This document shows, piece after piece, positions 892 to 58,376 of a stretch of DNA of 64,000 bases. Positions within the stretch are counted from its first letter, which is position 1. Every line of letters starts with the position of its first letter. The position numbers and the translations under genes were made by a program. A model generated the notes under the pieces. It was not told the DNA's origin. It saw only the letters and a program-made list of their open reading frames with translations, and did no database searches. The stretch lies in IMG/VR virus record IMGVR_UViG_3300028797_000101, positions 32,001 to 96,000 of that record, one strand, 5' to 3'. Origin of the DNA: a virus (taxonomy: Duplodnaviria; Caudoviricetes).

Positions 892-1323
892 GTGATGAAA
901 ATACTAAACACATTAGAGCCTTACAAAGTATTAGACACAGAGGGTGGTATTCAATACGGTGTATGCAGAGATTTTTCACATGTATCTAGATACAGAGGTC
1001 TTCGCCAAGTAACACATTGTCCTGATGTAAGAGAAGATCGTTTCGTTGCATTTGAAACACCTAATCCGTTTACAACACATACATATGTGAAATACTATGA
1101 TGTCCCTGAATTTGAAGAAAATCGACTTGACCTTATTGCGTACAAGTTCCTCGGCGATGCAACATACTCCTGGGTGCTTGCATACTTCAATCATATTGAA
1201 GATGGATTCACAGTAAAAGAGGGTCAGAGACTTATGATTCCAAATTCTATCACAGATCTGTTCAATAAAGGAGAGATGCTTGCTCCTATCAATCCTACAA
1301 AACTCAATCTTGGAGGCGAATAA
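892..1323 (+). CDS. Baseplate wedge protein, T4 gp53/LysM-like
   Basis: Motif RLDLIAYKFLGDATYSWVLAYFN..GQRLMIP; baseplate context. Confidence 0.75.
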   Translation: MMKILNTLEPYKVLDTEGGIQYGVCRDFSHVSRYRGLRQVTHCPDVREDRFVAFETPNPFTTHTYVKYYDVPEFEENRLDLIAYKFLGDATYSWVLAYFNHIEDGFTVKEGQRLMIPNSITDLFNKGEMLAPINPTKLNLGGE

Positions 1324-1883
1324 TGAAACGATACATACGTGCATCGGAAAACATCAGACAGAACGAGTATAACACATATCTTGCTTCACACATACAGGGA
1401 GTAAATGATGTCTGGAACCAGATGCTCAGGCCTGCCGTAACAGAACATCTAGATGAATTAAATGAAGAGTTCGGCATTACAGATGAAGATATCGCTGAAT
1501 GCGATAACACAATCATGTATCATGATGCATCTAAGTATGGTGATGAAGAGTATGATGCGTATTGCAATCATTGGTACCCAACAGAGAAAACTCCTGCAGA
1601 TGAGGATGCATATGAAATAGCTTGGATACATCATAAACGCGTAAATTCTCATCATTGGCAGCATTGGCTTTCAGTTCATGATTCTGGGTCAGTTGTTCCT
1701 GTAGATATGCCAGCAAGTGATGTGTTCGAGATGCTGTGTGATTGGCATTCGTTTTCAAGACGCGATCCAAGTTCTACTGCGCCCGGGTGGTACAAGAAAC
1801 AAAAATCCAAGATGATCTTATCATCTAACACAAAGAAACTTGTCAAAGCTTTACTTCCATTCTTAAAGGAGCCGCTTAAATAA
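1323..1883 (+). CDS. HD-superfamily phosphohydrolase (DUF5662-like) with MKRYIRASE leader
   Basis: H..HDASK, HHKRVNSHHWQHW and EMLCDW motifs. Confidence 0.7.
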   Translation: MKRYIRASENIRQNEYNTYLASHIQGVNDVWNQMLRPAVTEHLDELNEEFGITDEDIAECDNTIMYHDASKYGDEEYDAYCNHWYPTEKTPADEDAYEIAWIHHKRVNSHHWQHWLSVHDSGSVVPVDMPASDVFEMLCDWHSFSRRDPSSTAPGWYKKQKSKMILSSNTKKLVKALLPFLKEPLK

Positions 1884-1886
1884 CAT

Positions 1887-3341
1887 ATGAAGAAACAACC
1901 ATGGGTGTCATTTACATTATCAAATGTATCATTAACTGAATTTGGTTTGAAGATACCCTCTCCGTTTGTATCTTTAACATTGTCTAACAGTGAAATAACT
2001 TCTACTACTTCCTGGACACTAAGATGTGTAGTAGGCGGAGATGATACTAAGAAAGTGAATGTAGCTGCCTTTGAAGCATTACTATACAGCGCAGCACAAG
2101 CTATCAGTTCTTATCCAAACGCAAGCGGAATACCTGTATCTTTTGCATTTGGTTGGTTAGATGAGAAAGGCAAGATAACAGATTACTTGTCTTACCAAGG
2201 ATTCACACTCACATTCAAAGTATCAACTTCTGGGCTGTATATGCAATATGAGATAACAGGATTCGCGTCACTTGCAATACAGTGCAGTATGCCTGTTTTA
2301 CGTATACCAGAACTTACAGGGTTTGTTCAGCCCTCCGCTATCTTCTGTGCACTTGTTAAAGCAACAAAAGCTGATACATTCTATGAAATTGATGTAGATC
2401 ATACAGATGCTCCAACACTTGTTAGCCATGGCGCAATGACAACAAGTTTCAATAAGTATGTTAGAGGCTCATTCTCTGCAGAAGATAACTACGAAGAATT
2501 TCCAGGATTGCTCAAGCTTTCTAAAACATACAGCGGTTCAAGAGACTCTGCAGGTCTAAACAGTTACAAAGCAAAGAAGCTGAGTCAGGTTCTCAACAAT
2601 GCTACTCATACGCCGGTAGAAGAATTCTTAAAGTCTTCTAACACAGATCTAACTCCGCAGTGCTCTGCCTATTCCTACTGGGTAGATGAACCTACTTCTA
2701 CAAAGCTCGGAGTAATTCATTACAAGAGTAACGCGAATCTGTCAATGTCGCAGATATCTGATACACTAAGATATGGAACAAGAGATTCTAATGTGATATC
2801 ACTTCAAGGTTCCTACAATGGCGTAGCATACAACATGACAGACATGAGATTCTCTACAGTAGGATTCTCACTAGACGAAAGCGGTAACACAATTATTCAG
2901 GATGCCGAAGTAGTAAACAGCTGGAGTGCTTCACTTGCTGATGTATTCCAAACAGTTAACATAATCAATGATGTAAACGCAATAGCGTCTCAGTTCAGCG
3001 GAGATTTTACAGTAACTATTCCCGGAACAACAAAGACCTATCAAATCGCACAGCCAGTTTCGTTATTGGTTATGACGGGGAACACTTTATCGCCCGTGTC
3101 TGGAATATACAATGTGATGTCTGTTTCTCATACTATTGGAACTACATTCACAACAACACTAAAGATTCAAAGACTTGTTATGAGCTCTGCTAATGATGTC
3201 GCTTCAAGTCAGGGCATATTCATCTCAGGAAGTGGAGCTTATCCAAGAAGTGCTTATACAACTACATCTAATGTTAAGAGCACTTCTTACGTAGATTTCG
3301 GAATACTTTATCCGGATTTTACGTGTATGCAATTATCATAG
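1887..3341 (+). CDS. Baseplate hub protein (gp27/GpD-like)
   Basis: C-terminal SGIYNVMSVSHTIGTTFTTTLKIQR hub-type motif; position in baseplate cluster. Confidence 0.6.
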   Translation: MKKQPWVSFTLSNVSLTEFGLKIPSPFVSLTLSNSEITSTTSWTLRCVVGGDDTKKVNVAAFEALLYSAAQAISSYPNASGIPVSFAFGWLDEKGKITDYLSYQGFTLTFKVSTSGLYMQYEITGFASLAIQCSMPVLRIPELTGFVQPSAIFCALVKATKADTFYEIDVDHTDAPTLVSHGAMTTSFNKYVRGSFSAEDNYEEFPGLLKLSKTYSGSRDSAGLNSYKAKKLSQVLNNATHTPVEEFLKSSNTDLTPQCSAYSYWVDEPTSTKLGVIHYKSNANLSMSQISDTLRYGTRDSNVISLQGSYNGVAYNMTDMRFSTVGFSLDESGNTIIQDAEVVNSWSASLADVFQTVNIINDVNAIASQFSGDFTVTIPGTTKTYQIAQPVSLLVMTGNTLSPVSGIYNVMSVSHTIGTTFTTTLKIQRLVMSSANDVASSQGIFISGSGAYPRSAYTTTSNVKSTSYVDFGILYPDFTCMQLS

Positions 3342-3362
3342 AAGAAAAGCGAGGATGATAAC

Positions 3363-3923
3363 ATGATCATTGCAAACTGTGCGGTGACAAAATCAGATGC
3401 TACAATTGTAAAGTACTACGTAGACACAGAAAGATCTTCAAAATACAAGATAAATGGCGGATTATGTGCCGGTGTAGTTCTAAAGTCTACATCGGCACAA
3501 GATTTGAGTGCGTATAGCTTGTGTCCAGGCACTGTTGTTTACACAGGTGTTAATAACACAGGTGCTTATGGATGTGACCTTGGAAAGTATGTAGTGATAG
3601 TTATGTACAATAGGTACAACGCTGTAATGTATTCAGGCCTCACATCTCTAAATGTGAAGATCATTGACAAGCTAAACAAAGGCGATAAGCTAGGATCTTG
3701 CAAGAGCATCTTGGTTTCCTATCTTTCCAAAGAGAACGCCTTATGGGCTGTCCGTCTTGACAGCCAAACAACCTGGTACAAGCATGATCCACTTGATATA
3801 CTTCAATCTGGATATGAAGCAACATTCATGTCTATCGACATTCCTGAAGAATCTTCGGAAGACGATCCCGGAGAAGGACTCAATCCTGAAGCTGATTACA
3901 CTTTATCAAACAACCAAGGGTGA
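3363..3923 (+). CDS. Degenerate M23-peptidase-fold baseplate protein
   Basis: PGTVVYTG..GKYVVI..YSGL..LNVK..KGDKLG pattern; the Zn ligands HxxxD and HxH are absent. Confidence 0.5.
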   Translation: MIIANCAVTKSDATIVKYYVDTERSSKYKINGGLCAGVVLKSTSAQDLSAYSLCPGTVVYTGVNNTGAYGCDLGKYVVIVMYNRYNAVMYSGLTSLNVKIIDKLNKGDKLGSCKSILVSYLSKENALWAVRLDSQTTWYKHDPLDILQSGYEATFMSIDIPEESSEDDPGEGLNPEADYTLSNNQG

Positions 3924-3929
3924 TAAACA

Positions 3930-5093
3930 ATGGGTTACAGTTCATTAGTTTCTTACATAAAGCTAAGTCCAAATAAAAACAGCCCTCGAAACCATAAGAT
4001 TGATTCTGTAGCTATTCACTGTATGGCAGGGAATCTATCTGTAGAGACTTGTGGAGATTTGTTTGCTAATCCAGAAAGAAAAGCGTCGTCAAACTATGGA
4101 ATTGGTTCAGATGGTAGGATTGCTCTTTATGTAGATGAAAATGATAGATCCTGGTGTACATCTTCTGGTGGTGTAGATCATAGGGCAATCACAATAGAAG
4201 TCGCTAACAGCAGTATTGGTGATCCATGGCCTGTTTCTGATGCTGCGTATCAATCTCTTTTGAATCTTCTAACTGACATATGTAGAAGGAATCAGATATC
4301 TTCGCTAAGATGGATGGCCAATAAAGCGTATGCTGTTACAGCAGCTAACGGAGGTCCGGTAGATCAGCAAAACATGTTTGTACATAGATGGTTTGCTGCA
4401 AAAGCATGTCCAGGTGACTATCTTTACAACGCACATGGTGCAATTGCTACAGAAGTAAACAGACGTCTTGCATCAGGAGCTCCTATCACTCCAGTAGTTT
4501 CTACTGCAGCTCCTACCGTAGCTATTGATAGGTCTAAACTGAGACCATATGTCCCTATTCTAGATAGAGACTCACCAACTCCTAATTACTCTCAATTTTA
4601 TGCAAACGGTGTAGTAGGTGCGATTGTAGAAGCTGGATATCAGTTTACATCTGCACACATTCGTGTTGAAAACTTCAGAAATCCTAAGGCCTACGATCAG
4701 GTTCAAGCTCTTATCTCTGTGAGACTTCCCTTCGGCTACTACATGATAGCAAGAGCACAAAATTTATCGGAAGTTAGAGAGGAAATGTATCAGCTATCAT
4801 TTCTGGTAAGAAAATACTCTCCAGGGCTTGGTGTGTGGTTGCAATTAGATCTTCCTAAAAATCAACCAGATATAAATGATAATATCTTAAACGCATATAA
4901 GACATATCTCATAAAATTAGGTCTTGTAGGTAAGATAGGAATATATGCTGATAGCAGTACAATCAAAAGTATCAACTGGAGCAAGCATTATCACGAATGG
5001 CTTCTGTGGTATGTAGATAGAGTTTCTGGAGTTGGTCAATTATCTACTGTATTTGACTCTTCGTTCTTCGCTATGTCAGGGAGGTACACATAA
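3930..5093 (+). CDS. Virion-associated N-acetylmuramoyl-L-alanine amidase (Amidase_2) plus GH25-like domain
   Basis: AIHC, SSNYGIG, TIEVA and HRWFAAKACPG motifs; the C-terminal half has a GH25-like pattern. Confidence 0.8.
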   Translation: MGYSSLVSYIKLSPNKNSPRNHKIDSVAIHCMAGNLSVETCGDLFANPERKASSNYGIGSDGRIALYVDENDRSWCTSSGGVDHRAITIEVANSSIGDPWPVSDAAYQSLLNLLTDICRRNQISSLRWMANKAYAVTAANGGPVDQQNMFVHRWFAAKACPGDYLYNAHGAIATEVNRRLASGAPITPVVSTAAPTVAIDRSKLRPYVPILDRDSPTPNYSQFYANGVVGAIVEAGYQFTSAHIRVENFRNPKAYDQVQALISVRLPFGYYMIARAQNLSEVREEMYQLSFLVRKYSPGLGVWLQLDLPKNQPDINDNILNAYKTYLIKLGLVGKIGIYADSSTIKSINWSKHYHEWLLWYVDRVSGVGQLSTVFDSSFFAMSGRYT

Positions 5094-6763: not shown

Positions 6764-6771
6764 AGGTAGAT

Positions 6772-7065: not shown

Positions 7066-7075
7066 GAGGTATGAC

Positions 7076-11073: not shown

Positions 11074-11955
11074 TTGAAGGATATAGTATCCGCATCGAAA
11101 TCAATAGGATTACAACAAAATGTACTTATAAGGATAATAGATCCGGTAACAGGCGATGTAGTTCAAGAGCATCAGGGTCATAACTGTGCGACCAATTCTG
11201 CACTTGTCGGTATTGGACATTATCTTACAGGTGATGGAGTCTTTAATCAGGGCTATGATATGTTGAGTAGATACATTCCTCAGTACATATCTTTAGGTAC
11301 AATGGGTCTTTACACTCAGGAAGAAGATGCTGAAGGACTTCCGTCAGGTATTGGAGTAAACACAACTCTTTCAGAAGTTGATAATTTCAAAAGATATGTA
11401 GCCGAAAGACCTGGATACGGAGCTGACGGGTATGATCCTAATCAGAACAACAATCGTCCGTATTTAGGAATTGGCCCGGTGTTTTCAGATAGACCAGATA
11501 GCACAAAGACCGTAAATTGTGAATTGATCGATGTATCGTTTCCCAGGGCTAAGGTATCTTTCAGAGATATTGTACCGGAGACACAATCGGAAGTTCCCAA
11601 GACGATTGATGTCGTGTTTAGTGCAATGATATCAACAGGAGCTTTAAGAACATTTCGTGAAACTGGGAAAGATTACATATTTATAACTGAAGCAGGTCTT
11701 TGGTCTAAACCTGTTTGGGAGTCAAGTGGAGAGAATGGTTTAATTGCAGCTTATAGAATACTTCCTACAGATGAGGATAACTGGGACATGGAAGATCCTG
11801 AAAACAGAGATCTTCTCAAGAGAAGCATACTAAAAGTAGGGCTGAATCAAGTAGTTCAAGTTATTTGGAAGTTTCAGCTAGGCAGCAAAGATGAACTCGG
11901 TGGATATGATCCAATTCCTATACATTATGAAAATGCAGACATAGTTAGGTACTAG
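11074..11955 (+). CDS. Baseplate/tail-fibre attachment protein
   Basis: TTG start with AGGAG SD; YISLGT and ITEAGLW motifs typical of tail-collar/fibre-anchor proteins. Confidence 0.5.
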   Translation: MKDIVSASKSIGLQQNVLIRIIDPVTGDVVQEHQGHNCATNSALVGIGHYLTGDGVFNQGYDMLSRYIPQYISLGTMGLYTQEEDAEGLPSGIGVNTTLSEVDNFKRYVAERPGYGADGYDPNQNNNRPYLGIGPVFSDRPDSTKTVNCELIDVSFPRAKVSFRDIVPETQSEVPKTIDVVFSAMISTGALRTFRETGKDYIFITEAGLWSKPVWESSGENGLIAAYRILPTDEDNWDMEDPENRDLLKRSILKVGLNQVVQVIWKFQLGSKDELGGYDPIPIHYENADIVRY

Positions 11956-12320: not shown

Positions 12321-13724
12321 ATGAAAGATTCAAAGATCAAAGCAGATGTAGCTCTCAATGCGAAGCCTCTTGCTATCTTAGGCGAGTACGCAGGTGAATG
12401 TGCAGATGCAAATATCACTAACAAGAATGGTCTTGATATCACAAGGCCTGTGTGGGAAGGTGTATTTGCATCGGAGGAGTACAACGAAGGCATCAAAAAT
12501 GGTCATTACATCGGGTTCCTCGGACATCCTGAAGATCCAAACTGCATGGATTTCGAGCATGGATGTATTGTGATGACAGAAGGTCACATTGATCCAGATG
12601 GAAAGGTTCAAGGCAAATTCAACCTTGTTAACACGCCTGTAGGTCAGATTGTAAAAACTTTTATAGACGCAGGAGTTAAATTCGGCATATCTGTTAGAGG
12701 TGCTGGTGACATTGTAGACAATTCCGTAGATCCTGATACGTTTGTATTCAGAGGATTTGACCTTGTAGCGTTTCCTGCATATCCTAACTCCATTCCTACT
12801 TTCACAGAGATAGCCGCGTCTACAGACGCTGTTCAGCAAAAGAAATATCAAGCGGTTTGTGCTGCGGTAACAAAAAACTTAGATACACTTAACAAGACTG
12901 AGGTAGATGTTATCCAGGCTAATTTCGCAAAGCAGTCCAAGGAATATGCTGCACTTGAAACCAGAAAGAAAGTTTTAGCGGGTGAGCAAGTAGAAGTAAC
13001 ATCAGAGGCTGCAGAAGCTGTAGTTGCTTCTCAAAAGCTCGACGCTGTAACAGCTCTTTATCTAGAAGCACAGAAAAAGAATAAAGTTTTGCAGTCTGAA
13101 AACATCCATCTTCGTCAGCTACTGAAGACAATAAAATCTGCAGATAGCAGAAAGATCGACAGCTTGAATCGCATAACAGCTGCTCAAATGAGAGACATGG
13201 ATCAAGCTCTTGCAGATGCAGCTAGTAGAACAAAGAAAGCTGTACTGAGCAATCATTCTTTATCCAAAGATCTAGCAGACGTGACAAAGCGTCTTAAGTC
13301 TGCTGAAGATACTAACCTTAAATATAGTCAGAAGATCGAAGCCAACACTCAAATTATTCTGGAAAAGGATTCTATCATTTCTAAGCTTCAATCAAACTTA
13401 TCTGAAACTGTCAGAAAGGCCAATGATGCAGAAGCTAAGACATCAAACTGTGATGCACAGATAGCGAGCCTTCAACGAAAGATCGAGGCTGCACAAGCTC
13501 TCGTAGATGAGTATCAGAACGCATATGCACAGATTTATGCAAATGCAATTGGTGTAGGTCTAGAACACGTTTCTGTAACAGCAACAACGACTGTTTCAGA
13601 ACTCCAACAGATCATAAAGGGATCCTCCAAGTACACTTCTGGAGCGCAAGAAGCTGTTTTAGCTTCGGCACAAATCTCCGAAATAGGTACAGACATGGAT
13701 GACTCTTCCCTCATCACGTTGTAA
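12321..13724 (+). CDS. Prohead protease (T4 gp21-like) fused to a coiled-coil scaffold
   Basis: GFLGHP, FGISVRGAG and FDLVAFPAY protease motifs; long heptad-rich C-terminus; precedes the capsid gene. Confidence 0.85.
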   Translation: MKDSKIKADVALNAKPLAILGEYAGECADANITNKNGLDITRPVWEGVFASEEYNEGIKNGHYIGFLGHPEDPNCMDFEHGCIVMTEGHIDPDGKVQGKFNLVNTPVGQIVKTFIDAGVKFGISVRGAGDIVDNSVDPDTFVFRGFDLVAFPAYPNSIPTFTEIAASTDAVQQKKYQAVCAAVTKNLDTLNKTEVDVIQANFAKQSKEYAALETRKKVLAGEQVEVTSEAAEAVVASQKLDAVTALYLEAQKKNKVLQSENIHLRQLLKTIKSADSRKIDSLNRITAAQMRDMDQALADAASRTKKAVLSNHSLSKDLADVTKRLKSAEDTNLKYSQKIEANTQIILEKDSIISKLQSNLSETVRKANDAEAKTSNCDAQIASLQRKIEAAQALVDEYQNAYAQIYANAIGVGLEHVSVTATTTVSELQQIIKGSSKYTSGAQEAVLASAQISEIGTDMDDSSLITL

Positions 13725-13750: not shown

Positions 13751-15277
13751 ATGAGTATCACGAAAACTATTCATCCCTCTAGCAGACGTCCTGTTGCAAG
13801 CAACAGCCGCCCTGTTATGGCTAGTTCCAATGTTGGTGCTGCACGTCGTCCTGTAGCTCCTACCAATCGTCCTGCATCCGCTATTACAGCCGGTGTTCGT
13901 ACTCGTCAGCAGAGCCCTATTTCGGCTGCTATTTCTAAGCTGTCTCCTGAGAAGCAGATCTTCGCTCGTCAGCTGCAGGCAAATATGAATCGTCAGGCAC
14001 GTACCATCACTGCTGCTACCAACACGACCAACATCATGGCTCGCCCGGATTTCATGGAGCTGCTGCCTATGTTCGTTCAGAAGCTGCTTATCCTGGACGT
14101 TTATGGTTCCGTAGCAATGAAGTCCCGTCAGCAGTTGATTCCTTACTTCAAGTTCATCGCTGAGAACACTAAGGGTGAGACGAAGGCCGGTGACATCCTC
14201 TCCAGTCCTTTCGTAAATCGTCAGGGTGTTGATCCTAACTTCACCAGCAAGACCATCAAGAATGAGGTAATTGCTGAAGGCACCGATATCACCGACAACT
14301 TGACCGTTGTTTACACTCCTGTACTTCCTGGTTCCGTAACCATCAAGTATGTAGCTTCCGGCGTTACTACCGCACTTGTTGATGACGGTAACGGCAACAT
14401 CGTTGAGGCAGGTTCTACTACTACCGCAGGTGTTATCAATTACAGCACCGGTTCCATCAGCTTCGTGAACGGTGTGCTTACTCCTGCAGCAGGCAACAGC
14501 GTTTCTGCAACTTATCAGTACGACAACGAGAACGTAGGTCCTAGAACTCCTGGCAATGGCGGTTATGGTTACGAGTACGGCGCACAGATGGCTAAGGGCT
14601 ACTTGCAGCTGGATGAGATCAACATGGTAGCTGAAGCTCACGAGCTTGCTTGCTACTGGAGCATCTTCTCCGCATTCGCAGCACAGCAAGAGTACGGCTC
14701 CAACGTAGGCGACATCGCGAAGGAAGCTGCTTTCTCTGAACTCACTGCTGAAATCAACACCGATGGCTTCCAGCGTCTGCTCCAGGCTGCATCCTACAAG
14801 CCTCAGTTCAACTGGGATGCATCTCCTGTACTTACCGGTTCTGTTGTTCCTTCCGATTACCTGAACATGTTCAAGCTTAAGCTCACTCAGGCAGCTGCTT
14901 CCATTTATCAGGCAACCAGATTAACGCAGCCTAACAAGCTGATCGTTGGTTCCAACGTAGCTTCTTACATCAGCATGATCAACGGATTTGTTGCACAGGG
15001 CGCAGCAGAGAACGTAGGTCCTTACAAGGCAGGTAAGCTGGATCAGTTCGACATCTATGTAGATCCTAACTACAATCCGGATACTTGGGTAATGGCTTGC
15101 AAGTCTAACGACATCAGACGTAATACCGCTCTCTTCGGCGAGTACATGCCTCTGACGAGTACCGATGCGGTAGGTTTGGCCAATAGCTCGGTACAGCAGG
15201 GTTACGCTACGATGTATGGTATGAAGATCGTAAATCCTGACACCGTTGTATCCGGTAAGATTCTCGGCACATTCTAA
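13751..15277 (+). CDS. Major capsid protein (T4 gp23-like) with basic propeptide
   Basis: gp23-like motifs (FSELTAEIN, GKLDQFDIYVDP, GEYMPL, QGYATMYG); strong codon bias; position after the protease. Confidence 0.9.
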   Translation: MSITKTIHPSSRRPVASNSRPVMASSNVGAARRPVAPTNRPASAITAGVRTRQQSPISAAISKLSPEKQIFARQLQANMNRQARTITAATNTTNIMARPDFMELLPMFVQKLLILDVYGSVAMKSRQQLIPYFKFIAENTKGETKAGDILSSPFVNRQGVDPNFTSKTIKNEVIAEGTDITDNLTVVYTPVLPGSVTIKYVASGVTTALVDDGNGNIVEAGSTTTAGVINYSTGSISFVNGVLTPAAGNSVSATYQYDNENVGPRTPGNGGYGYEYGAQMAKGYLQLDEINMVAEAHELACYWSIFSAFAAQQEYGSNVGDIAKEAAFSELTAEINTDGFQRLLQAASYKPQFNWDASPVLTGSVVPSDYLNMFKLKLTQAAASIYQATRLTQPNKLIVGSNVASYISMINGFVAQGAAENVGPYKAGKLDQFDIYVDPNYNPDTWVMACKSNDIRRNTALFGEYMPLTSTDAVGLANSSVQQGYATMYGMKIVNPDTVVSGKILGTF

Positions 15278-17655: not shown

Positions 17656-18096
17656 ATGCGCAATAATAGAAGACACTATCGCGTAGTTGCTGATGAACTC
17701 ATTGATGAGAATCTTGATCAGATCGACGCTATGCCAGATGATGTAGAAGATGTTGCAGATGATGCACAGGTTGACGTAGCACCTGAAGCTTCCGAGCTCT
17801 TGTTCGAAGCTGAAGATGTTGCAGAGCTGCTTGCAGAAGTAACCGGAGACGATGTAGAGGTAACCGTAGATGAGGATTCCGTTAAGTTTACAGTTGGCGA
17901 TGTAGATTACACCGTAGCTGCAGAAGGTGACGAGGAGATCCTTGAGAGTTCTCGCATCTACAACAAGAAGAGTATCAAGGCGTCTGTTCGCAGACCCGTA
18001 AAGTCCTCTACTCAGGCAGCGCCTAAGCGTGCTGTTGCAAGACCTGCTGCTCCCGCACAGAAGCCTGTTCGTAGAGTATCTCGCACAACTCGCTAA
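17656..18096 (+). CDS. Acidic core/scaffold-like head protein with basic tail
   Basis: Acidic centre; the C-terminal RRPV/ARPA tract resembles the capsid propeptide; several [IV]x[AS][SD] motifs. Confidence 0.55.
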   Translation: MRNNRRHYRVVADELIDENLDQIDAMPDDVEDVADDAQVDVAPEASELLFEAEDVAELLAEVTGDDVEVTVDEDSVKFTVGDVDYTVAAEGDEEILESSRIYNKKSIKASVRRPVKSSTQAAPKRAVARPAAPAQKPVRRVSRTTR

Positions 18097-28332: not shown

Positions 28333-29124
28333 ATGAAAATCATTTCCAGTAGACTAGATGATGTTCGCATGGAGAAGGAGAACTACGAACGCGACTATGC
28401 AGAACAGAAGGCTAGATATGATGAACAAAACGCTGCTTACACACGAGCAACTAGAGCGGTGCTTGACAACATTGAATCTGCACTTCTTCAGCAGATAAAC
28501 GCAAGAACTTCTCAGAATGTTAAGGTGAAAGCAGAACGAGACTTTTCTTACAGATATCCTCAAGAGTCCTTTGTACAGGTTAAAGTATATGCAGAAAATC
28601 CTGGATGGCCGTTAAGATGGTCATGGTATGCAAATATCAATCAAGAAACTGGCGAGGTGGAGAAATCTTCCAACAGCTATTCAGGTATCGAAGCTACAAC
28701 TCCTGAAGACATCAACATGCTCAAAGAGTCTTTAGACGTAATGGACTACTTAGTAAATCAAGTAGATTGGAACACATTACTTCATGTGCAGCTTCCTAAA
28801 GGTTCTGATTATTTTACAATGAAGCAGCCTGAGCGTAGAAATTTTGCTCAAGCTGAGGCAGACGCGCTGATTGCCGATTGCGTAGGTCAGCCGATCCTTG
28901 TCAAATGTACTGTAACTAGCGATAATTACAGAGTCAAAAAATGGGTTAGGTTCTTATCACAAACTGCTGCTTTCTACAATGTAATAACTATCAGCTCTTC
29001 TTATTCTGCGGAAGAGCTGGAAAACGATTTCAAAGAACTGACTGAAGTCAAATATCCTCAAAGAATAAGCAAGGCTAAAATCTTCCCTGTTACACCTTTT
29101 GAAACAATAGAGATTTTAGAGTAA
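28333..29124 (+). CDS. Hypothetical protein, MKIISSR leader
   Basis: AAGGAG SD; downstream of the intragenic late-type motif at 27905. Confidence 0.6.
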   Translation: MKIISSRLDDVRMEKENYERDYAEQKARYDEQNAAYTRATRAVLDNIESALLQQINARTSQNVKVKAERDFSYRYPQESFVQVKVYAENPGWPLRWSWYANINQETGEVEKSSNSYSGIEATTPEDINMLKESLDVMDYLVNQVDWNTLLHVQLPKGSDYFTMKQPERRNFAQAEADALIADCVGQPILVKCTVTSDNYRVKKWVRFLSQTAAFYNVITISSSYSAEELENDFKELTEVKYPQRISKAKIFPVTPFETIEILE

Positions 29125-29163: not shown

Positions 29164-29400
29164 ATGTTAGCATACATTAAATCTGCTCAAGACCCTAATG
29201 CAGATCCATTAGGTGATATCATGGACACAGTCGAAGATGATTTCGATTTCATCATGTCAGGATTAGATAAGCTGGGTCGAGAGAAGTCGACACAAGGTCA
29301 AGCTCTGACAATTGCATCTAACATGGCAGATGGGTTCCAGAGCATAATCAAAGACATAGCGAGTGCGCTGAAAGGAGAAAGAGTAAATGAGACCGAATAG
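29164..29400 (+). CDS. Hypothetical protein, MLAYIKSAQ leader
   Basis: AGGAGG SD. Confidence 0.6.
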   Translation: MLAYIKSAQDPNADPLGDIMDTVEDDFDFIMSGLDKLGREKSTQGQALTIASNMADGFQSIIKDIASALKGERVNETE

Positions 29401-31621: not shown

Positions 31622-32029
31622 ATGAGAATTTCTGTTAACAAACATACAGTGACAGCATCTCAGAGAATTGTAGCTGCAGATGAAGATAATCCATTTGAGG
31701 GAATGCAGGCAGACAAGGTCGAGGAGGACAACTTCGATACCTCTTTTGAATCTACTGAGGATGATGTAACAGATCAGTTAGACGACATATCTGATGATGT
31801 TGAAGACCTTCAGGACGCTTTATCTGATGTTCAGGAGGATGACACAAACATCGAGATAGACAACAACATCTCCGGACATTACATAGCTGAATGTGAGAGA
31901 TGTCATGGAATCTTTATTTCAGCTGTAACCGAATCTGATCAAACTGTCAAGAAAATAACCGGTGTGTGTCCTCTGTGTGACAGAGAGACAGATCAGTATT
32001 TGAAATGGGTGGTGAAGGATATTGAGTAA
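31622..32029 (+). CDS. Acidic Zn-ribbon protein, VTAS/IVAAD leader
   Basis: CERC..CPLC; late-type motif at 31564. Confidence 0.65.
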   Translation: MRISVNKHTVTASQRIVAADEDNPFEGMQADKVEEDNFDTSFESTEDDVTDQLDDISDDVEDLQDALSDVQEDDTNIEIDNNISGHYIAECERCHGIFISAVTESDQTVKKITGVCPLCDRETDQYLKWVVKDIE

Positions 32030-32255
32030 AGCTGATCACGAAGGCAGGTACTGTTGTGATTTCTGTGGTAATTTTCATAGACGATTACCTGGAAACATAT
32101 ACAAGTTAGCTATAAAAGGGAAAACTTTTCATTTTTGTAGCTGGACATGCTACGAATCGGCAAAAAGAATAAAAGCCTCTACTTCTGGAGAAGACGCGAG
32201 GCGGCGATTAGAAAAGAGAAGGGAGAAGTTTTCTAGCAATGAAGCGATATGTTAA
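32022..32255 (+). CDS. Small Zn-binding (TRASH-like) protein
   Basis: CDFCG..FCSWTC motif. Confidence 0.55.
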   Translation: MSKADHEGRYCCDFCGNFHRRLPGNIYKLAIKGKTFHFCSWTCYESAKRIKASTSGEDARRRLEKRREKFSSNEAIC

Positions 32256-32616
32256 TTGTTCACAAGAAAAAACATTGGATATCAATCAGGACAATCATAT
32301 AACTTTCTATCATGGCCGCAGGATGTTTGCTGCAAACATTCGGATGATTCAGCCATATCCATTGTTTGTAGGACATGTATATCAGCCACATCCATATGAT
32401 GATGCTGAATACACAACCGCGTATATTGGTAGACGCGGAATTATGTACGTAGAATTTGTGCGGGATGGAAAAGTTATCAGCAGAATGCAGCTCCATGTTT
32501 ACGACGAGGAAGACTACGAGAGACCAGAAGACTATGTGAATGATGTTCTAGATCAGATTGCAGTAGAAATATTGGATCTGGATAGAAATGTAGAACCTAG
32601 GATGGTTCATAACTAG
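32239..32616 (+). CDS. Hypothetical protein, MKRYVNCSQ leader
   Basis: ORF overlapping the previous stop codon. Confidence 0.6.
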   Translation: MKRYVNCSQEKTLDINQDNHITFYHGRRMFAANIRMIQPYPLFVGHVYQPHPYDDAEYTTAYIGRRGIMYVEFVRDGKVISRMQLHVYDEEDYERPEDYVNDVLDQIAVEILDLDRNVEPRMVHN

Positions 32617-49581: not shown

Positions 49582-50109
49582 ATGAAGAGATTGATAGTTG
49601 CATCTGTTTCAACAAATGATGATTCTATCAGTAAAGAAGTACTTAGAATCAGATCTGAATTAGATTCTACAGGCGAATCAAGCACCTGTTCAAAAGATGT
49701 AGCAGATATGTACAGAGCTAACAAGAATCTTTTTCGGAAGTTCGAGGTTACTGATCAGCCGGATGGCTGCTACTTAATACGCGTTACTGCTTCCACAGAT
49801 CCTAACGATGAAATTTTCATGCTTATGGAGTATGATCCCGGAAGTCCTGAGGATGGAATGGACGCAGACGACTTCTACTGTATCGGCAAATTCTTTGCAA
49901 GAAGCTTGCAAGATGCAAAAGATCGTCTCGCATCACTAGAATATGATCTTCAGTTTGCTTCAGGTGATTTCTACGTAGACGAATACAATGAAGCGTTTGA
50001 TGACGATGATGAAGTATACAGCAGCTTAGATGCGCTGATCCAGGACAAGTTTGATTTCGAACACATTGGAATGGATTCTGCAGATGACGACACTTTACCA
50101 TTTGAATAA
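49582..50109 (+). CDS. Acidic two-module protein, MKRLIVAS leader
   Basis: Late-type motif at 49536; internal VTAS motif. Confidence 0.6.
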   Translation: MKRLIVASVSTNDDSISKEVLRIRSELDSTGESSTCSKDVADMYRANKNLFRKFEVTDQPDGCYLIRVTASTDPNDEIFMLMEYDPGSPEDGMDADDFYCIGKFFARSLQDAKDRLASLEYDLQFASGDFYVDEYNEAFDDDDEVYSSLDALIQDKFDFEHIGMDSADDDTLPFE

Positions 50110-50537: not shown

Positions 50538-51029
50538 ATGAAACGACATATCATGGCAGAAGAAGATTGGGAGCCCAACGATAACGACGAACTGAACAGC
50601 CTGAAAGAGCTCATGCAGGATAACATATCGAAACAAGATGATATCCAAGTAGGTATCTTCTGGTATGATCCTGAAGAAGCCGAGCTATTCGGTGTAGTAA
50701 CCGCCGATATAGAGGATGTGCAATTCTACAAGTCGAATCTATTCAATACCGAAGTAAAGACCTGCAGGCCGCTGCATTACAAAGTATGGGAGAGAAACTT
50801 CGTCAAAGGTAAGGATAAAAGGTTCCAGGGTGACTATACACTAGTTCCTAGAGGTCGTGTATTTTATGTCAAGAACAAAGGCCCAGTAGTTATCGTAGGC
50901 GATTGGATTGACGAATATCCCTCTGCAAAAGAGCAGATACTCTTAGAATTCAATCTACCACAATCAACAGAGTTCAGGAAAGACGTCCATTGGAATATTG
51001 GACATGAATGGTCAGATAAATTTATGTAA
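50538..51029 (+). CDS. Hypothetical protein, MKRHIMAEE leader
   Basis: VGIFWY, H..W, PRGRV and HW motif-like residues. Confidence 0.6.
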   Translation: MKRHIMAEEDWEPNDNDELNSLKELMQDNISKQDDIQVGIFWYDPEEAELFGVVTADIEDVQFYKSNLFNTEVKTCRPLHYKVWERNFVKGKDKRFQGDYTLVPRGRVFYVKNKGPVVIVGDWIDEYPSAKEQILLEFNLPQSTEFRKDVHWNIGHEWSDKFM

Positions 51030-51047: not shown

Positions 51048-51206
51048 ATGAAGAAATATGTAAAAGCTGCATCGGAAGAGAAAATGTCTTTTAGAGAGTG
51101 GTTAGATTTCACATACTATCCAGGATTCTATGAAGCTGCTTCTGGATTGTCCGATGAAGAATACTACGAATTGGAAGATGCTTATCAAGAGTACTTGAGA
51201 GAATAA
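51048..51206 (+). CDS. 52-aa acidic protein, MKKYVKAASE leader (not in the ORF track)
   Basis: GGAGG SD; open frame ending at TAA 51206. Confidence 0.65.
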   Translation: MKKYVKAASEEKMSFREWLDFTYYPGFYEAASGLSDEEYYELEDAYQEYLRE

Positions 51207-51515: not shown

Positions 51516-51857
51516 ATGAAACTGCATATTAGTTCCGCATCAAACAGTGATGCACCATATACAGCCAAGCTGTTCTACAATACAGCTTGTGCTGAGCGTA
51601 GACCCTATCGCAATCGGGAAGAATTCAGAGAGGATTTTTCGATAGTAAACGTCCCTGGAGCTAATGACCTTGAAGCTTTTGAAAATCTCCAGGATTTTTT
51701 AGACGAGTACCAGGACTTCAAGACTCCTCAAGAATACATAGACTTCTGGGATTCTCAAGACCTTGGAGATGGTTCTACTATTGTCCTTTGGGTCAAAAGA
51801 GGCTCTAAGTATGTTTACAACTCCGGGTTGACTATGAAGGATCTTTGGGAGAGTTAA
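51516..51857 (+). CDS. Acidic hypothetical protein, MKLHISSAS leader
   Basis: GAGGAG SD. Confidence 0.6.
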   Translation: MKLHISSASNSDAPYTAKLFYNTACAERRPYRNREEFREDFSIVNVPGANDLEAFENLQDFLDEYQDFKTPQEYIDFWDSQDLGDGSTIVLWVKRGSKYVYNSGLTMKDLWES

Positions 51858-51992: not shown

Positions 51993-52002
51993 ATGGTAAT
52001 AT

Positions 52003-52064
52003 CCGCAGTTTGGTTTTACTTTCCCAGTCCTGCGGTTTACAAATAAAAACACTACTAAAGGAGG
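52003..52064 (+). promoter_or_regulatory. Candidate preQ1-I-like riboswitch 2 (translational, queF SD)
   Basis: CCGCAG/CTGCGG stem, 21-nt loop TT..GTC, A-rich tail running into AAAGGAGG. Confidence 0.6.
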
Positions 52065-52073
52065 ACATGAATA

Positions 52074-52607: not shown

Positions 52608-52631
52608 GTAACTACGGAAGGTGGAACGCAA

Positions 52632-53372: not shown

Positions 53373-53385
53373 AGGAGAACATAGT

Positions 53386-53817: not shown

Positions 53818-53821
53818 TAAG

Positions 53822-54457
53822 ATGAAAATAACAGAAATTTTCAAAAGTATTTCAGGTGAATCTATACAGGCCGGATATCCGGCAACATTCATAAGAACAC
53901 ATGGATGTTTGCTAAGATGCAGCTATTGCGATTCGATGTATGCTGTAGAAGGCGATGGCTACGGGAACATGTCAATCGCTGAGATATTAGAGACAGTGCT
54001 GAAGCTAAACTGCAAGCGAATTGTGTTAACTGGTGGTGAGCCGCTCATTCAGCATGATGCATTTGATCTTGTTCAAGAACTTCTTGCTTATGGATGTTCT
54101 GTAGAGATTGAAACATGCGGCGCAGTAGATATTTCAAAGTATATTTTACCTGGCGTAATTGTTACCATGGACTGGAAATCTATAAGCAGCGGAATGAATG
54201 GCAGAATGCTGCCAAGCAACTTGAGTAAGCTTCGAGATACAGATGTACTTAAGTTTGTAGTTTCTACCGAGGATGATCTAGAAGACATGGCTAAAGTATC
54301 AACACAAACTAAAGCACAGTGCTTCGTCAGTCCGATATTTGGGAAAATTGACCCGCAGGAGATTGTCATGTATCTTATCCAGAATGATCTCAACAACATT
54401 CGGATTCAATTACAGCTACATAAAATAATTTGGGATCCAAACAGAAAAGGAGTGTAA
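53822..54457 (+). CDS. queE: 7-carboxy-7-deazaguanine synthase (radical SAM)
   Basis: [21 protein letters not shown] and QLHK motifs. Confidence 0.95.
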
Positions 54458-54458
54458 C

Positions 54459-55034
54459 ATGAAGAATATAGACAGCAAGAAGATCGAAGAGCTTACAAGA
54501 GAGTTTCTCATAGCTCTCGGAGATGATCCAGATCGCGAAGGGTTGAAGAAAACACCCTACAGAGTAGGTAAGATGTGTCAAGAGATTTTTGAAGGAATGC
54601 AGTATACTAATGAAAATATTGCGAAGATGTTCAACACCTGTTTTGAAGATGTAGCGACTGGCGATTTAGTTGTAGAGTGTCACATTCCTATTCACAGCTT
54701 CTGCGAGCATCATTTGATGCTAATGTACGAAGTAGATGTAGCTATCGGCTACATTCCTAATGGCCGTGTCATTGGTCTCAGTAAACTCGCAAGGATTGCA
54801 GACATGGTAGGCAAAAGACTTCAGCTTCAGGAGAGAATTGGTTCTGACATTGCCGATATTTTACAAATGGTTCTGAATACAGAAGACATCATTGTAGTTA
54901 TCGAGGGTAAACACGGCTGCATGACAGCAAGGGGCATCAAAGCTAGAGAAGCTGTAACGCGTACCGCTACACTTAGAGGTAGATTTAACACAGATTCTGA
55001 TCTGAGGGCGGAGTTCTATTCTTTAATAAAGTAG
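54459..55034 (+). CDS. folE: GTP cyclohydrolase I
   Basis: REGL..TP.R, CEHH, GLSKLAR, QLQER and H.CM..RG motifs. Confidence 0.95.
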
Positions 55035-55058
55035 TGCTTCGTTATAGCATATGATACT

Positions 55059-55122
55059 AGTCATGGTTCAGTGAACCTCACCTAATCCCATGACTCAAAA
55101 TAATGAAAAACCAAAAAGGAGG
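55059..55122 (+). promoter_or_regulatory. Candidate preQ1-I-like riboswitch 3 (translational, transporter SD)
   Basis: AGTCATGG/CCATGACT stem, 21-nt loop TTC..ATC, A-rich tail into AGGAGG; TCGTTAT motif at 55039. Confidence 0.65.
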
Positions 55123-55132
55123 AACTTAGAAC

Positions 55133-55855
55133 ATGAATTCTAAGAAAACAAGTCTTGTAGCGGACTATAAAATGCTACTCAGAAACGTACCTGCCCTTGT
55201 AACTGTCACATTTGTTGTCGGTACGCTTGCGATGAACTTAGCTGCCGCTAAGGTGATCTTCAATTTCGGCATCGTTGCCGGAACAGGCGGAATAATTCTG
55301 TCATGGCTTCCTTTCTTATGCATGGACACAGTGTCTAAGCATTTCGGAGCTAGGGCATCAATACTTCTTAACATCTTATCGTCGGCATTCAACATCTTAG
55401 TAACTATCTTTCTTGCAATCGTCGCAGCAATTCCTACTGAGCAAGATTATTCTGCGTTCAATACTTCATTTAGCGCAGTATGGTTTATTGTAGTAGCATC
55501 TAATGTCGCATTCATTCTTTCGGGAGTAGTAAACTCACTTCTTAATGTATCTGTTGGCAAATTGTTTAAAAATAAAACCAGCGGAGCTGAGTTCTTTACA
55601 AGGAGTGCGATTTCGACATTTGTCGGACAGGTAGTTGATAATTTCTTATTCATGTGGCTTCTTTATACTGTCTTCGCACCTATTTTCTGGGGCATGGAGC
55701 CTATGTCTGCTTTAACCTGTCTTGGAACTGGAATTCTTGGCGGCTTGCTAGAACTTGTATGTGAATTGATTCTTACACCCTTCGGCTACAAGATCATCAA
55801 GAACTGGGAACGCGATGGCGTAGGTCAAGAGTACATTGATGCACATAATGCGTAA
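55133..55855 (+). CDS. yhhQ: Queuosine-precursor transporter (YhhQ/VUT family)
   Basis: About 6 TM segments; N..A.K, FL..D....FG and R...ST..GQ..DN..F motifs; que context. Confidence 0.8.
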   Translation: MNSKKTSLVADYKMLLRNVPALVTVTFVVGTLAMNLAAAKVIFNFGIVAGTGGIILSWLPFLCMDTVSKHFGARASILLNILSSAFNILVTIFLAIVAAIPTEQDYSAFNTSFSAVWFIVVASNVAFILSGVVNSLLNVSVGKLFKNKTSGAEFFTRSAISTFVGQVVDNFLFMWLLYTVFAPIFWGMEPMSALTCLGTGILGGLLELVCELILTPFGYKIIKNWERDGVGQEYIDAHNA

Positions 55856-55881
55856 GATTTTGAGATAATATAGACACGATT

Positions 55882-55917
55882 ACAACCCAGGAGCAACTAA
55901 AAGCTTCTGGGTTGTTT
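55882..55917 (+). terminator. Terminator after the que operon
   Basis: ACAACCCAGGAGC/GCTTCTGGGTTGT followed by TT. Confidence 0.8.
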
Positions 55918-55990
55918 ACTGGTTCGTTATAGTTATCACAACCTTAAATACTATCAGTAGTAACACAATATCTGAATAAAGGAGGTTTAT

Positions 55991-56380
55991 GTGATGATAG
56001 AAATTGACTTCAGTCAGCCCTGTCCTAAGAAGTATGTCGACATCGTTCAGTATGGTGATGGCGATATGATAGACGATGAGGACATCGGCCTGATCGATGT
56101 AACCGGAGTAGATCCTGAAGAATATGCTCTGGAAGACGAAGGTGATCTGTATTATTTTCTTGTATCCAAGTTTGATGACGCATCTTGGAAGCAGCTTATC
56201 GATGCTATCATAGCAGCTACAGATTATTATGATCTGTATGCAAACATTGGTATCGACAATAACATACGAGAAGCTTTGAACCTTGGTCACACAGGCGCAG
56301 TAGTTATCACAGCAGTAGGTGATAACAGAGAAACCGGTGAAACGGAAGATTTCCAGATTGCATACTTCGCGTTAGAGTAA
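55991..56380 (+). CDS. Very acidic hypothetical protein
   Basis: Late-type motif at 55940; AGGAGG SD. Confidence 0.6.
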   Translation: MMIEIDFSQPCPKKYVDIVQYGDGDMIDDEDIGLIDVTGVDPEEYALEDEGDLYYFLVSKFDDASWKQLIDAIIAATDYYDLYANIGIDNNIREALNLGHTGAVVITAVGDNRETGETEDFQIAYFALE

Positions 56381-56466
56381 ATTATCAAATAGAGCATATC
56401 TCAGTACATAGGTATGCTCTATCTTTATGGTTGAATCGTTATATACTACAGTAAGGAGGTATTCAG

Positions 56467-57993
56467 ATGAATATAAACAACTATAAGGGTCTAGAAACAC
56501 TATCTGCTCTAGAGTTAGGCGAAAAGGTAAATTTCAAAGAAATTTCACCTGTAGAGGTAATCGAATATTTTAGAGCACGAGTAGAATCTAGAAACCCCTC
56601 TATCAATGCATTTGTGTATACAAAGTTTGATGAAGCACTGAAAGAAGCCGAAGAACTAGAGAAGATGATACTCGCAGGAGATCATTTCAAGCCTCTGGCA
56701 GGTGTACCAATTGGGTTGAAAGACTTCTTGCCCACCAAGAAAGGATGGACAGCGTCACATGGCGGAGTGCCAAGTTTAATAACTGTCGATGATTGCGATT
56801 CTGAGTTCTACAAAGCTGCAAAGAGCTTAGGTGCAATCGCCATTGGGAAGACTAATGCACCTTCTTTCGGATTCCGCGGTGTATGCGATAACAAGATGTA
56901 TGGACCTACCTCAACTCCATTCAATGTAAAATACAATTCTGGCGGGTCGTCTGGTGGTTCTGCATCAGCAGTAGGTGATGGACTTGCACTTGCGTGTGAA
57001 GGAGGAGATGCTGGCGGATCTACTAGAATTCCGTCTGCTTGGTGTGGATGCTTTGGGTTCAAACCGTCTGCCGGAATTGTTCCAAGTGTATGTAGGCCTG
57101 ATGCTTGGGCCGCAACACACCCGTATTGCTGTTCTGGCCCAATCACGAAAACTGTATCAGATGCCGCAGCTATTCTCAGAAAGATGATAAGATTCGATTT
57201 ACGCGACCCTCTCAGTGTTCCAGTACCCGCAAATCTTCTGAGTATATGCGCCGACCTTGTAACACACCTGAACAAGCCGCTAGAAGGCGTTAGGATCGGT
57301 GTAACTAAGACATTCGATATTTTTCCTAATCCGGATGATCCTGTTTCATCTGCCATTGATGAAGCTGCAAAACTGCTTAAAGATCTGGGCGCAGAAATCG
57401 TTGAGACGAAATTCGATTTCGGATGTGATCGGGAATACATAGAAAACATGTGGTTACGAAGCATCAGTATCGATACTGCACTTGATTTTGAATGCAACAG
57501 AATTGCTACAGGAGAAGACATGCTTGAGAAGTTGCAAGATGAGCTTCCGATTAAGATGATGGTATGGACTAGAATAGCATTCTCATCGACTATGATGGAT
57601 TACAGGAAGTTTCATGAAATCCGAACAAAGATACTGGATGAGCATTTCAAGAACTTTGAAAAATGCGATATCTTACTAGCTCCGGTTACCGGTTGTTTAC
57701 CAGTTCTGAATAAAAATACAGATGCTGAGGGCCTTGTTGCAGGACCTTCTTTCATAGGCGGAGAGAAAGTTGATCCCTTCATCGGTTTTGGATACACCTA
57801 TCTTGAAAACTTGACTGGATTTCCGGCTGCATCTGTACCATTCAAGATAGATTCAGCTAACAATCTTCCTGTAGGTATCCAGTTAATCGGCAGAAGATAC
57901 ATGGACGATGAAGTTATCAATGTGGCCAGATGTATTGAATACGTTCACCCTTGGAGAGATTTCTACAAGATTCCTTTTGGTAGATCGTTATAA
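56467..57993 (+). CDS. Amidase-signature family enzyme (GatA-like fold)
   Basis: GVPIGLKD, GKTN, GGSSGGSA, DAGGSTRIP and LPVGIQL motifs (Lys-Ser-Ser triad). Confidence 0.9.
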   Translation: MNINNYKGLETLSALELGEKVNFKEISPVEVIEYFRARVESRNPSINAFVYTKFDEALKEAEELEKMILAGDHFKPLAGVPIGLKDFLPTKKGWTASHGGVPSLITVDDCDSEFYKAAKSLGAIAIGKTNAPSFGFRGVCDNKMYGPTSTPFNVKYNSGGSSGGSASAVGDGLALACEGGDAGGSTRIPSAWCGCFGFKPSAGIVPSVCRPDAWAATHPYCCSGPITKTVSDAAAILRKMIRFDLRDPLSVPVPANLLSICADLVTHLNKPLEGVRIGVTKTFDIFPNPDDPVSSAIDEAAKLLKDLGAEIVETKFDFGCDREYIENMWLRSISIDTALDFECNRIATGEDMLEKLQDELPIKMMVWTRIAFSSTMMDYRKFHEIRTKILDEHFKNFEKCDILLAPVTGCLPVLNKNTDAEGLVAGPSFIGGEKVDPFIGFGYTYLENLTGFPAASVPFKIDSANNLPVGIQLIGRRYMDDEVINVARCIEYVHPWRDFYKIPFGRSL

Positions 57994-58058
57994 GTAGTGT
58001 AAACAACCTTACATACAAGAGAAGTAACAGTTGAAAAGTTTTAAGAAAGCGTGATAAT

Positions 58059-58376
58059 ATGATAATAACAGCATCGTTCAACAAATCTCAGTTTCAGAAA
58101 AACTTAATACGTGTTAAATCTTCTAACATGTGGGGATACGCAGCGGATGTGAAAGATCCTAAGTCCAAGGTGTGTGATGTTTACATCCAATTCAAAGGAA
58201 GAAATGGTGGACCTGATGATGTCTACATCTACTATGACGTACCTTTGATCGTTTATAGACGTATGCACACAGCTCCATCAAAGGGCCATTACTTCTATCA
58301 GTACATTCGTAATAATTACATGTACCGGAAACTGACGGGTGATAAGAGGACGAAACTTAAAAATGGAATAAATTGA
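58059..58376 (+). CDS. KTSC-domain protein, MIITAS leader
   Basis: VKSSN..Y..IQFK..Y.YYDVP..Y....APSKG.YF...IR..Y; late-type motif at 58005. Confidence 0.8.
   Translation: MIITASFNKSQFQKNLIRVKSSNMWGYAADVKDPKSKVCDVYIQFKGRNGGPDDVYIYYDVPLIVYRRMHTAPSKGHYFYQYIRNNYMYRKLTGDKRTKLKNGIN

Follow-up and report, generated by a model that had tools for sequence, protein, structure and literature searches.

In the 64,000-nucleotide stretch analysed here (hereafter the window; bases 32001-96000 of a single virus contig of 159,304 bp, which has direct terminal repeats and is rated complete) and in the remainder of that genome, about 25 unrelated, mostly ORFan proteins were found to begin with a common tag of exactly eight residues, M-K-[RK]-Y-[IV]-[KR]-[AS]-[SA]. 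On comparison of the sequences, the last four residues of the tag are the motif which is conserved, across 60-76 related metagenomic phages, at the boundary of the capsid propeptide, at the protease/scaffold junction, within the scaffold and in the propeptides of head-module proteins. The tag is almost certainly a functional peptide module and is probably read by the head protease of the phage. The packaging and delivery of the tagged proteins, suggested by the analogy with phage T4, has about an even chance of being correct. Taken as a whole, a propeptide resembling the T4 capsid-targeting sequence (CTS), acting together with a gp21-type protease of altered specificity, is the somewhat favoured explanation.

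The genome has a GC content of about 40% and nearly all of its genes lie on the plus strand, preceded by strong ribosome sites of the AGGAGG type. This pronounced use of Shine-Dalgarno sequences is suggestive of a Firmicutes-type host. The nucleotide search with the head genes gave no match among GenBank phages. The best GenBank capsid matches, those of Streptococcus phage GXN1, Bacillus phage HSE3 and Listeria phage LIS04, were about 26% identical, with no close relative among them. Relatives were collected from IMG/VR, 26 loci and then 76; the identity was 57-97% for the capsids and no less than 52% for the protease domains. Three complete or near-complete relatives (L058, L059 and L060) were present in bins of metagenome-assembled genomes labelled Bacteroidaceae, Clostridia and Muribaculaceae, on contigs of 142, 20 and 145 kb, respectively. 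The labels conflict, and these are probably mis-binned phage contigs, not prophages.

The N-terminal tag and its carriers

The strict form of the tag, MK.[YFH][IVL].[SAC][SA], was detected at 15 of the 233 N-termini of the genome compared with 0.016 expected from the internal rate, and permutation of the residues within the columns of the N-termini resulted in 0.15 on average and never in more than 2. The loose motif occurred in the first 15 residues of 16 of the 84 genes of the window (6.5 ± 2.3 in random internal 15-residue segments, maximum 17 in 2000 draws) and of 44 of the 233 genes of the genome (16.2 ± 3.5, maximum 29). The original prediction had proposed a leader code [IV]-x-[ASC]-[SADE], with enrichment over background in the first 15 residues as its check. 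The enrichment was confirmed both in the window and genome-wide, and the code turned out to be real, with the true consensus being the tighter eight-residue form. The 13 N-termini listed as leaders were all present at their coordinates, and the starts chosen at 12321, 31622, 49582 and 50538 each have a Shine-Dalgarno sequence. Of these, MIINSAK (49080) was not conserved in the orthologs and MIITASF of the KTSC protein (58059) was ambiguous. The helicases, the ligase and the que enzymes carry no leader, as had been stated.

Most of the tagged genes are found beyond the window, arranged in tandem at genome positions 9.0-15.1, 19.2-20.9 and 155.0-157.7 kb. Seven strict-leader genes are located inside it (plus strand, as for every gene of the window for which both end coordinates are given below). 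The first, 1323..1883, lies in the tail/baseplate module and encodes the leader MKRYIRAS followed by DUF5662 (Pfam PF18907 over residues 13-177). The 78-residue product of 29164..29400 starts with MLAYIKSA and has orthologs beginning with MKRVIMSA, MKRLSRINAA or MKKRYRYITTA, besides extended forms with VDAS and IKAA sites. The remaining five are ORFans: 32239..32616 (MKRYVNCS, 125 residues, no Pfam or PHROG family), 49582..50109 (MKRLIVAS, 175 residues, no family), which heads a four-gene leader array, 50538..51029 (MKRHIMAE, 163 residues, no Pfam family), the ortholog of which in the relative G002 begins with MKRYIKSP, 51048..51206 (MKKYVKAA, 52 residues) and 51516..51857 (MKLHISSA, 113 residues).

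The proteins behind the tag are unrelated to each other. After the first 10 residues had been stripped, a single BLAST-similar pair was left among 27 tagged proteins, and the 62 tagged proteins of four complete clade genomes fell into 50 families, five of which were common to more than one genome. Paralogy as the source of the tag was ruled out by these two results. The logo built with one protein per family resulted in M50, K50, R32/K10, Y44, I41/V8, K19/R15, A21/S19/C6 and S23/A19, and from position 9 on the information content was at background. The only sizeable tagged paralog family was found in the relative G003 (L052-L053), where it occurs in seven tandem copies at 69945-80999 (reverse-complement coordinates); five of the copies start with MKRYIK[AS][AS]KTIEDY, and the family is related to two tagged genes of the present genome (G000), at genome positions 9060 and 10064.

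The codons of the leader vary synonymously: Ser is encoded by both TCN and AGY, Arg by AGA, CGA and CGT, and Ile by all three codons. The DNA upstream of the leader genes is not conserved. The free codon variation and the unconserved upstream DNA therefore show that selection acts on the leader peptide, and a nucleotide element or regulatory RNA as the source of the shared N-terminus was ruled out by the same two properties. No match was obtained for the leader strings in the literature.

Nearly all tagged proteins are without a Pfam or PHROG family, the exceptions being the DUF5662 protein and a protein with BspA-type leucine-rich repeats at genome position 155903. In the Pfam search of 30 tagged or neighbouring proteins, the matches were limited to DUF5662, BspA-type leucine-rich repeats and KTSC, and no DarA-like domain was found. 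The leucine-rich repeat protein (genome 155903-157333; L037:15903-17333) has 476 residues (Pfam LRR_5, E-value 1.8e-37), and such repeats are an unusual domain for candidate head cargo. The isoelectric point was below 5.5 in 16 of 23 tagged proteins, and none of the 23 had a hydrophobic stretch resembling a transmembrane segment or a signal sequence; a secretion or lipoprotein signal was ruled out by the lack of hydrophobic and lipobox features in this set. The proteins at genome positions 10676 and 14527 and at window position 49582 contain three [IV]-x-[AS]-[AS] sites each compared with about 0.3-0.4 expected (0.43 for the 49582 protein), and tagged proteins with three such sites may be cut internally as well.

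The DUF5662 protein illustrates how the tag is attached. In its AlphaFold2 model (pLDDT 96.8), residues 1-12 form a coil before helix 1. Distant homologs outside the clade are leaderless and start at the domain core, MS-x-x-Y-[DN]-x-Y-L-x-x-H, while closer homologs have a 10-20-residue extension beginning with MKRYI[KR][AS]S or MKRVIRAS. The ortholog in the relative G004 has kept MKRYIRAS and is also located in the tail/baseplate module. The tag is thus a modular add-on. Residues H23, H67-D68, H104, H110-H111 and D140 were invariant in 60 DUF5662 homologs, and the H...HD...H...D pattern makes an HD-like phosphohydrolase plausible. No significant match was obtained with this model in Foldseek, where HD hydrolases appeared among the weak rows only.

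The payload that had been listed in the original prediction was in part wrong. The HD hydrolase is plausible, whereas the methyltransferase (33630) is leaderless, a DarA-like domain was not recovered by Pfam, and the KTSC protein is ambiguous.

The head protease and its predicted cleavage motif

The gene at 12321..13724 encodes a prohead protease of the gp21 fold (residues ~1-163) fused to a coiled-coil scaffold. The match to Pfam PF03420 (Peptidase_S77) was a marginal pass, 28.7 bits with an E-value of 1.2e-6 at a cut-off of 27, and that to PHROG 207 (phrog_207, head maturation protease) had an E-value of 5e-22. The profile of the clade proteases gave no match among PDB sequences. With the AlphaFold2 model of residues 1-170 (pLDDT 80.8), the top Foldseek match was T4 gp21 (5JBL) with a TM-score of 0.66 and a probability of 1.0. 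The next matches were the proteases of KSHV (the herpesvirus associated with Kaposi's sarcoma), herpes simplex virus (HSV), pseudorabies virus (PrV), human cytomegalovirus (HCMV) and Epstein-Barr virus (EBV), with probabilities of 0.5-0.94 and TM-scores of 0.4-0.5. Residues H69 and S124 were invariant in 20 clade members and lie 55 residues apart in the sequence, a spacing equal to that of the catalytic H85 and S140 of T4 gp21 (PMC12991175). As the protein is much nearer to gp21 than to assemblin, it was classed as gp21-type with an assemblin-like rule and not as S21.

Candidate cut sites conserved in this gene were IKAD (12336-12347), IAAS at the protease/scaffold junction (12810-12821), VCAA (12855-12866), ITAA (13173-13184) and VTAT (13575-13586). 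The junction reads [IV]-[AS]-A-[SA]-[STK]-[DN] in 38 of 38 distinct contexts. Among 60 orthologs, the retention of IAAS, VCAA, VTAT and ITAA was 1.00, 0.87, 0.87 and 0.83, respectively, and the mean retention of the motif sites in the scaffold half was 39%, compared with 15% for the reversed-motif control. The fusion protein contains eight [IV]-x-[AS]-[AS] sites, whereas 2.6 would be predicted by its composition (p about 0.002). The strings IAAS, VVAS, IKSA, ITAA and VLAS that had been pointed out in the protease and scaffold were all present; IAAS and ITAA are conserved, VVAS, IKSA and VLAS are not conserved in the relatives. Within 12321-13724, there was no internal start in frame from which the scaffold could be made as a protein of its own. 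At the C-terminus of the fusion, nearly all of about 25 aligned relatives share an acidic stretch and L-[VI]-T-L, which together are probably the capsid-binding tip of the scaffold.

The Gp23-type major capsid protein is encoded directly behind, at 13751..15277 (Pfam Gp23, E-value 3.9e-18), with a basic propeptide of about 88 residues. Its predicted maturation site is I86-T-A↓A89 (14006-14017; arrows mark the scissile bond, in this clade a predicted one). Conservation of the capsid begins exactly at [IV]-[TMN]-[AG]-A-T-N-T-x-N-I in 45 distinct contexts, and the upstream part is variable in both length and sequence. Within this variable propeptide, a second [IV]-T-[AS]-x site is kept (ITAG, 13883-13894). 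The strings VMASS, ISAA and ITAAT described earlier for the propeptide were found there. In total, the capsid has six motif sites compared with 2.5 expected, and four of these are in the first 90 residues.

The same motif was found in an acidic head-module protein (17656..18096), the basic N-terminal propeptide of which ends with R-V-V-A↓D (17683-17694). In each of its 15 orthologs, the N-terminus is basic, varies in length between 7 and 50 residues and ends with [KR]-[IV]-x-A-[DESG], and several contain additional [IV]-x-A-S repeats. The C-terminal tail of the 17656 protein (…IKASVRRPVKSSTQAAPKRAVARP…; RRPVKSS) resembles the basic capsid propeptide (RRPVAS…SRPVMASS…ARRPVAP). This protein may be a scaffold- or core-like protein with an element for binding the capsid interior in common with the capsid.

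All gp21-type proteases that have been studied, the head proteases of T4, phiKZ, 201phi2-1 and SPN3US, cleave after Glu (PMC5694885). In the present clade, no conserved Glu was detected in the capsid propeptide of 22 aligned relatives and the boundary motifs are [IV]-x-[AGS]-[AS]; therefore, cleavage after Glu does not appear to apply here. The simplest rule to be derived from the alignments has Ile or Val at P3, Ala, Ser or Gly at P1 and a tolerant P1' that is small or acidic, and [IV]-x-small, in place of [IL]-x-Glu, is most likely what the head protease of the clade recognises. The small-residue P1 specificity proposed in the original prediction is thereby supported by comparative evidence, the conserved [IV]-x-small boundary motifs. 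In the cultured distant relatives HSE3 and GXN1, the capsid propeptides end with classical Glu sites (HMTE↓S, LLE↓S), and the leader patterns had zero matches in these two genomes. An A-x-E (phiKZ-like) reading of the leaders with ASE, ADE or AEE was rejected; many leaders are Glu-free, and from position 9 on the logo is at background.

Distribution and variants of the tag

When the Tyr-type leader was searched for with a degenerate pattern at the DNA level, there were 26, 25 and 24 matches in three relatives with complete genomes, 11 in a relative that is 71% complete and 12 in the genome studied here. Without exception the matches lay on the coding strand, and 0-1 were obtained with the reversed pattern as the control. 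Other clade members had 0-6 Tyr-type matches. The tag is present in relatives with capsids 57-72% identical.

In two relatives, G007 and G006, Tyr-type leaders were absent and 8 and 5 Val-type leaders (MKRV[IV]R[SA]S), respectively, were found instead; by gene call, at least 6 of the 8 in G007 are on different proteins. The ratios of Tyr to Val at position 4 were 26:1 (G001), 25:3 and 24:3, versus 0:8 (G007) and 0:5 (G006), and G009 was mixed with 4:8. The tag varies as a module by lineage, and the lineage-specific variants fit co-evolution with a shared phage partner.

Proposed role of the tag

In the proposed mechanism, a gp21-type protease fused to its scaffold would have exchanged the [IL]-x-Glu cutting rule for [IV]-x-[Ala/Ser/Gly] with a small or acidic residue next to it. 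The leader would direct the tagged protein into the core of the assembling prohead, in the way the CTS of T4 does, and the protease would then remove about seven residues at the predicted scissile bond, MKRYIK[AS]↓[SA]. The mature protein would remain inside the head and reach the host together with the DNA. In T4, the CTS is cut once, the peptide exits the capsid and the protein stays in the head (PMC8442874). The internal proteins of T-even phages are a diverse defence-related set with the CTS alone in common (PMC3012670).

The earlier suggestion that unrelated proteins share a leader with a protease site, with the T4 CTS as the analogy, was found to be apt. Both the T4 CTS (MKTYQEFIAE; on IPI-III and Alt, removed by gp21) and the tag are short N-terminal leaders on unrelated, fast-evolving proteins; both start with M-K-x-Y and end with the protease motif of their own phage, the cleavage being a prediction in the case of the tag. 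The two systems also have in common a protease of the gp21 fold, a Gp23-type capsid and head-core proteins with the same sites as the leader. The differences lie in the site, [IV]-x-[A/S/G]↓ here and [IL]-x-E↓ in T4, and in the fusion of the protease to the scaffold. Moreover, the present phage is an uncultured, Firmicutes-style gut-type phage.

Several observations weigh against the proposed mechanism. The leader of 7-8 residues is shorter than the T4 CTS with its 10-20. The number of cargo species, about 25 per genome, is high compared with the handful of tagged proteins in T4, and they are mostly acidic, unlike the basic T4 internal proteins. The large arrays resemble early-gene clusters near the genome ends and have no AACCTT-type motif (see below) in front of them. 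The motif is short and consists of common residues, and the site density of the capsid, taken alone, gives p~0.04. T4 gp21 can cut a cytosolic protein; therefore, packaging does not necessarily follow from cleavage. The lineage variants could alternatively have come from duplication or from an exchange of cassettes within a genome. Finally, the tag count ranges from about 7 to 26 among complete relatives, and the set is therefore dispensable.

Alternative explanations

Two other explanations are both unlikely, and to the same degree. According to the first, the head protease does recognise the leader as a true site, but the cleavage sets the time at which the proteins are activated, inactivated or released; this would happen in late infection, either in the cytoplasm or for a short while at the prohead, with no retention in the virion and no injection. 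This explanation accounts equally well for the identity of the leader and head-protein motifs, and it would suit the mostly acidic cargo, the arrays like early-gene clusters and the additional internal sites in several tagged proteins; a precedent is the cleavage of a cytosolic host protein by T4 gp21 (PMC12991175). However, trimming of seven unstructured residues is unlikely to switch 50 unrelated folds, and the known N-terminal propeptides that end with the protease motif in T4- and phiKZ-like phages are all on head-internal proteins (PMC5694885). The gp21-type proteases are also restrained by autoproteolysis and act mainly within proheads (PMC12991175).

According to the second, a different shared partner recognises the tag, such as a chaperone, a modifying enzyme or a system for localisation or degradation, and the tag resembles the head motif by coincidence. 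The shortness of the motif and its common residues would allow such a coincidence, the M-K-R-Y part lies outside the usual protease subsites, and the lineage variants show the modularity of the tag only. Nevertheless, no candidate partner gene was found, and no hydrophobic or lipobox feature suggests secretion. The end of the tag matches the sole motif conserved at the capsid boundary and at the junction in 38-45 distinct contexts. Furthermore, the distant relatives of the Glu type are tagless, and head-module proteins of the clade have related N-terminal sites.

A clearly less probable explanation is that of an expression module, in which a favourable Lys-Arg-Tyr-Ile translation start has spread together with the ribosome-binding site and carries no protein signal. 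Lys2 and A-rich early codons are indeed common in low-GC genomes, the leader codons are rather uniform in G003, and one leader family has been duplicated to nine members. Against this, the conservation reaches residues 7-8 ([AS][SA]), Ser is encoded by both codon types, the upstream regions are unconserved, and the most highly expressed genes, such as those of the capsid and the sheath, have no leader. The match to the head sites and the absence of the tag in the Glu-type relatives would also be left unexplained. Chance resemblance or a single diverged paralog family, although chance may well be behind 49080 and 58059, has next to no probability for the core set, being refuted by the 15 strict leaders against 0.016 expected, the 50 unrelated families and the presence of the tag in relatives with 57-72% capsid identity.

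Other head-module genes and the AACCTT motif

Three further genes have N-terminal or N-proximal sites of the same kind. The short leader M-K-I-I-S-S of 28333..29124 is kept as MKI[ITYV][SCA][SNT][RK] in five orthologs which are 25-30% identical overall. The protein encoded by 31622..32029, the start of which is supported by a Shine-Dalgarno sequence, has the N-proximal sites V-T-A-S and I-V-A-A-D (31667-31678), and its G002 ortholog has A-I-F-A-A-D-E at the equivalent place. The head-module protein encoded directly upstream of the protease (11074..11955; no Pfam family) has the N-terminus (M)KDIVSAS and is a doubtful member, with the N-terminal [IL]-x-A-[AG] retained in some orthologs only.

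The motif AACCTT[AG]NATA was found in 11 copies genome-wide, all on the plus strand and mostly 30-60 nt upstream of gene starts. Nine of these are in the window (10676, 13314, 15817, 19580, 27905, 31564, 42704, 55940 and 58005) compared with 0.34 expected, several of them before structural genes; the other two are at genome positions 24086 and 150093. The motif is probably a phage-specific promoter. The claim that most leader genes lie downstream of it is weak. The motif is present at most 60 nt upstream of 2 of the 13 (31622 and 58059) and 428 nt upstream of a third (28333), and it precedes none of the strict-leader genes. The scan of the main array for sigma-70 promoters and terminators was at background, with 45 sites compared with 52 expected.

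Comparison with other proteases and implications

The herpesvirus pUL26 protein has the order protease, release site, scaffold, maturation site (PMC4498786), and the sites of HSV-1 are Y-L-Q-A↓S-E-K and A-L-V-N-A↓S-S (PMC5613695). Assemblin/pUL26 and the present protease share the same fold and the fusion of protease to scaffold, in which a site follows immediately on the protease domain. The predicted aliphatic-x-Ala↓Ser rule with Tyr at P4 (leader Y-I-[KR]-A-S-E) parallels the Y-L-Q-A↓S and L-V-N-A↓S sites of HSV-1. The present protease is nevertheless nearer to T4 gp21 by TM-score (0.66 versus about 0.4-0.5), and retention and convergence are both possible as the origin of the likeness. In the herpesviruses, the site is not known as a leader on many cargo proteins. 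The giant phages phiKZ, 201phi2-1 and SPN3US are similar in that they have a protease related to gp21 which acts on the capsid, on its own C-terminus and on numerous proteins, internal or ejected, via N-terminal propeptides. They differ in the A/S/G-x-E cleavage and in the propeptides, which are long, often more than 100 residues, and share no short tag (PMC5694885).

An assemblin-like rule (Tyr/Val-aliphatic-x-Ala↓Ser) throughout this clade of large gut- or rumen-type phages, combined with an eight-residue leader that loads a rapidly changing set of up to about 26 ORFans per genome for injection, is a tentative proposal with somewhat less than an even chance. That the shift away from Glu lets the phage evade host sensors of Glu-specific head proteases is pure speculation.

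If the proposed mechanism is correct, a non-Glu rule would be seen here for the first time in a prohead protease of the gp21 type, and a rule mirroring that of assemblin would bear on the evolution of specificity in the ancient phage/herpesvirus protease lineage. For phages that infect Firmicutes-type hosts, the tag could then be used as a short handle for packaging, comparable to the use of the T4 CTS in the engineering of Escherichia coli phages. For the large uncultured clade itself, an eight-residue string would predict, from the sequence alone, which proteins are carried into the host, and the approximately 50 unrelated, nearly all domainless families of the four genomes would be candidate counter-defence or takeover factors.

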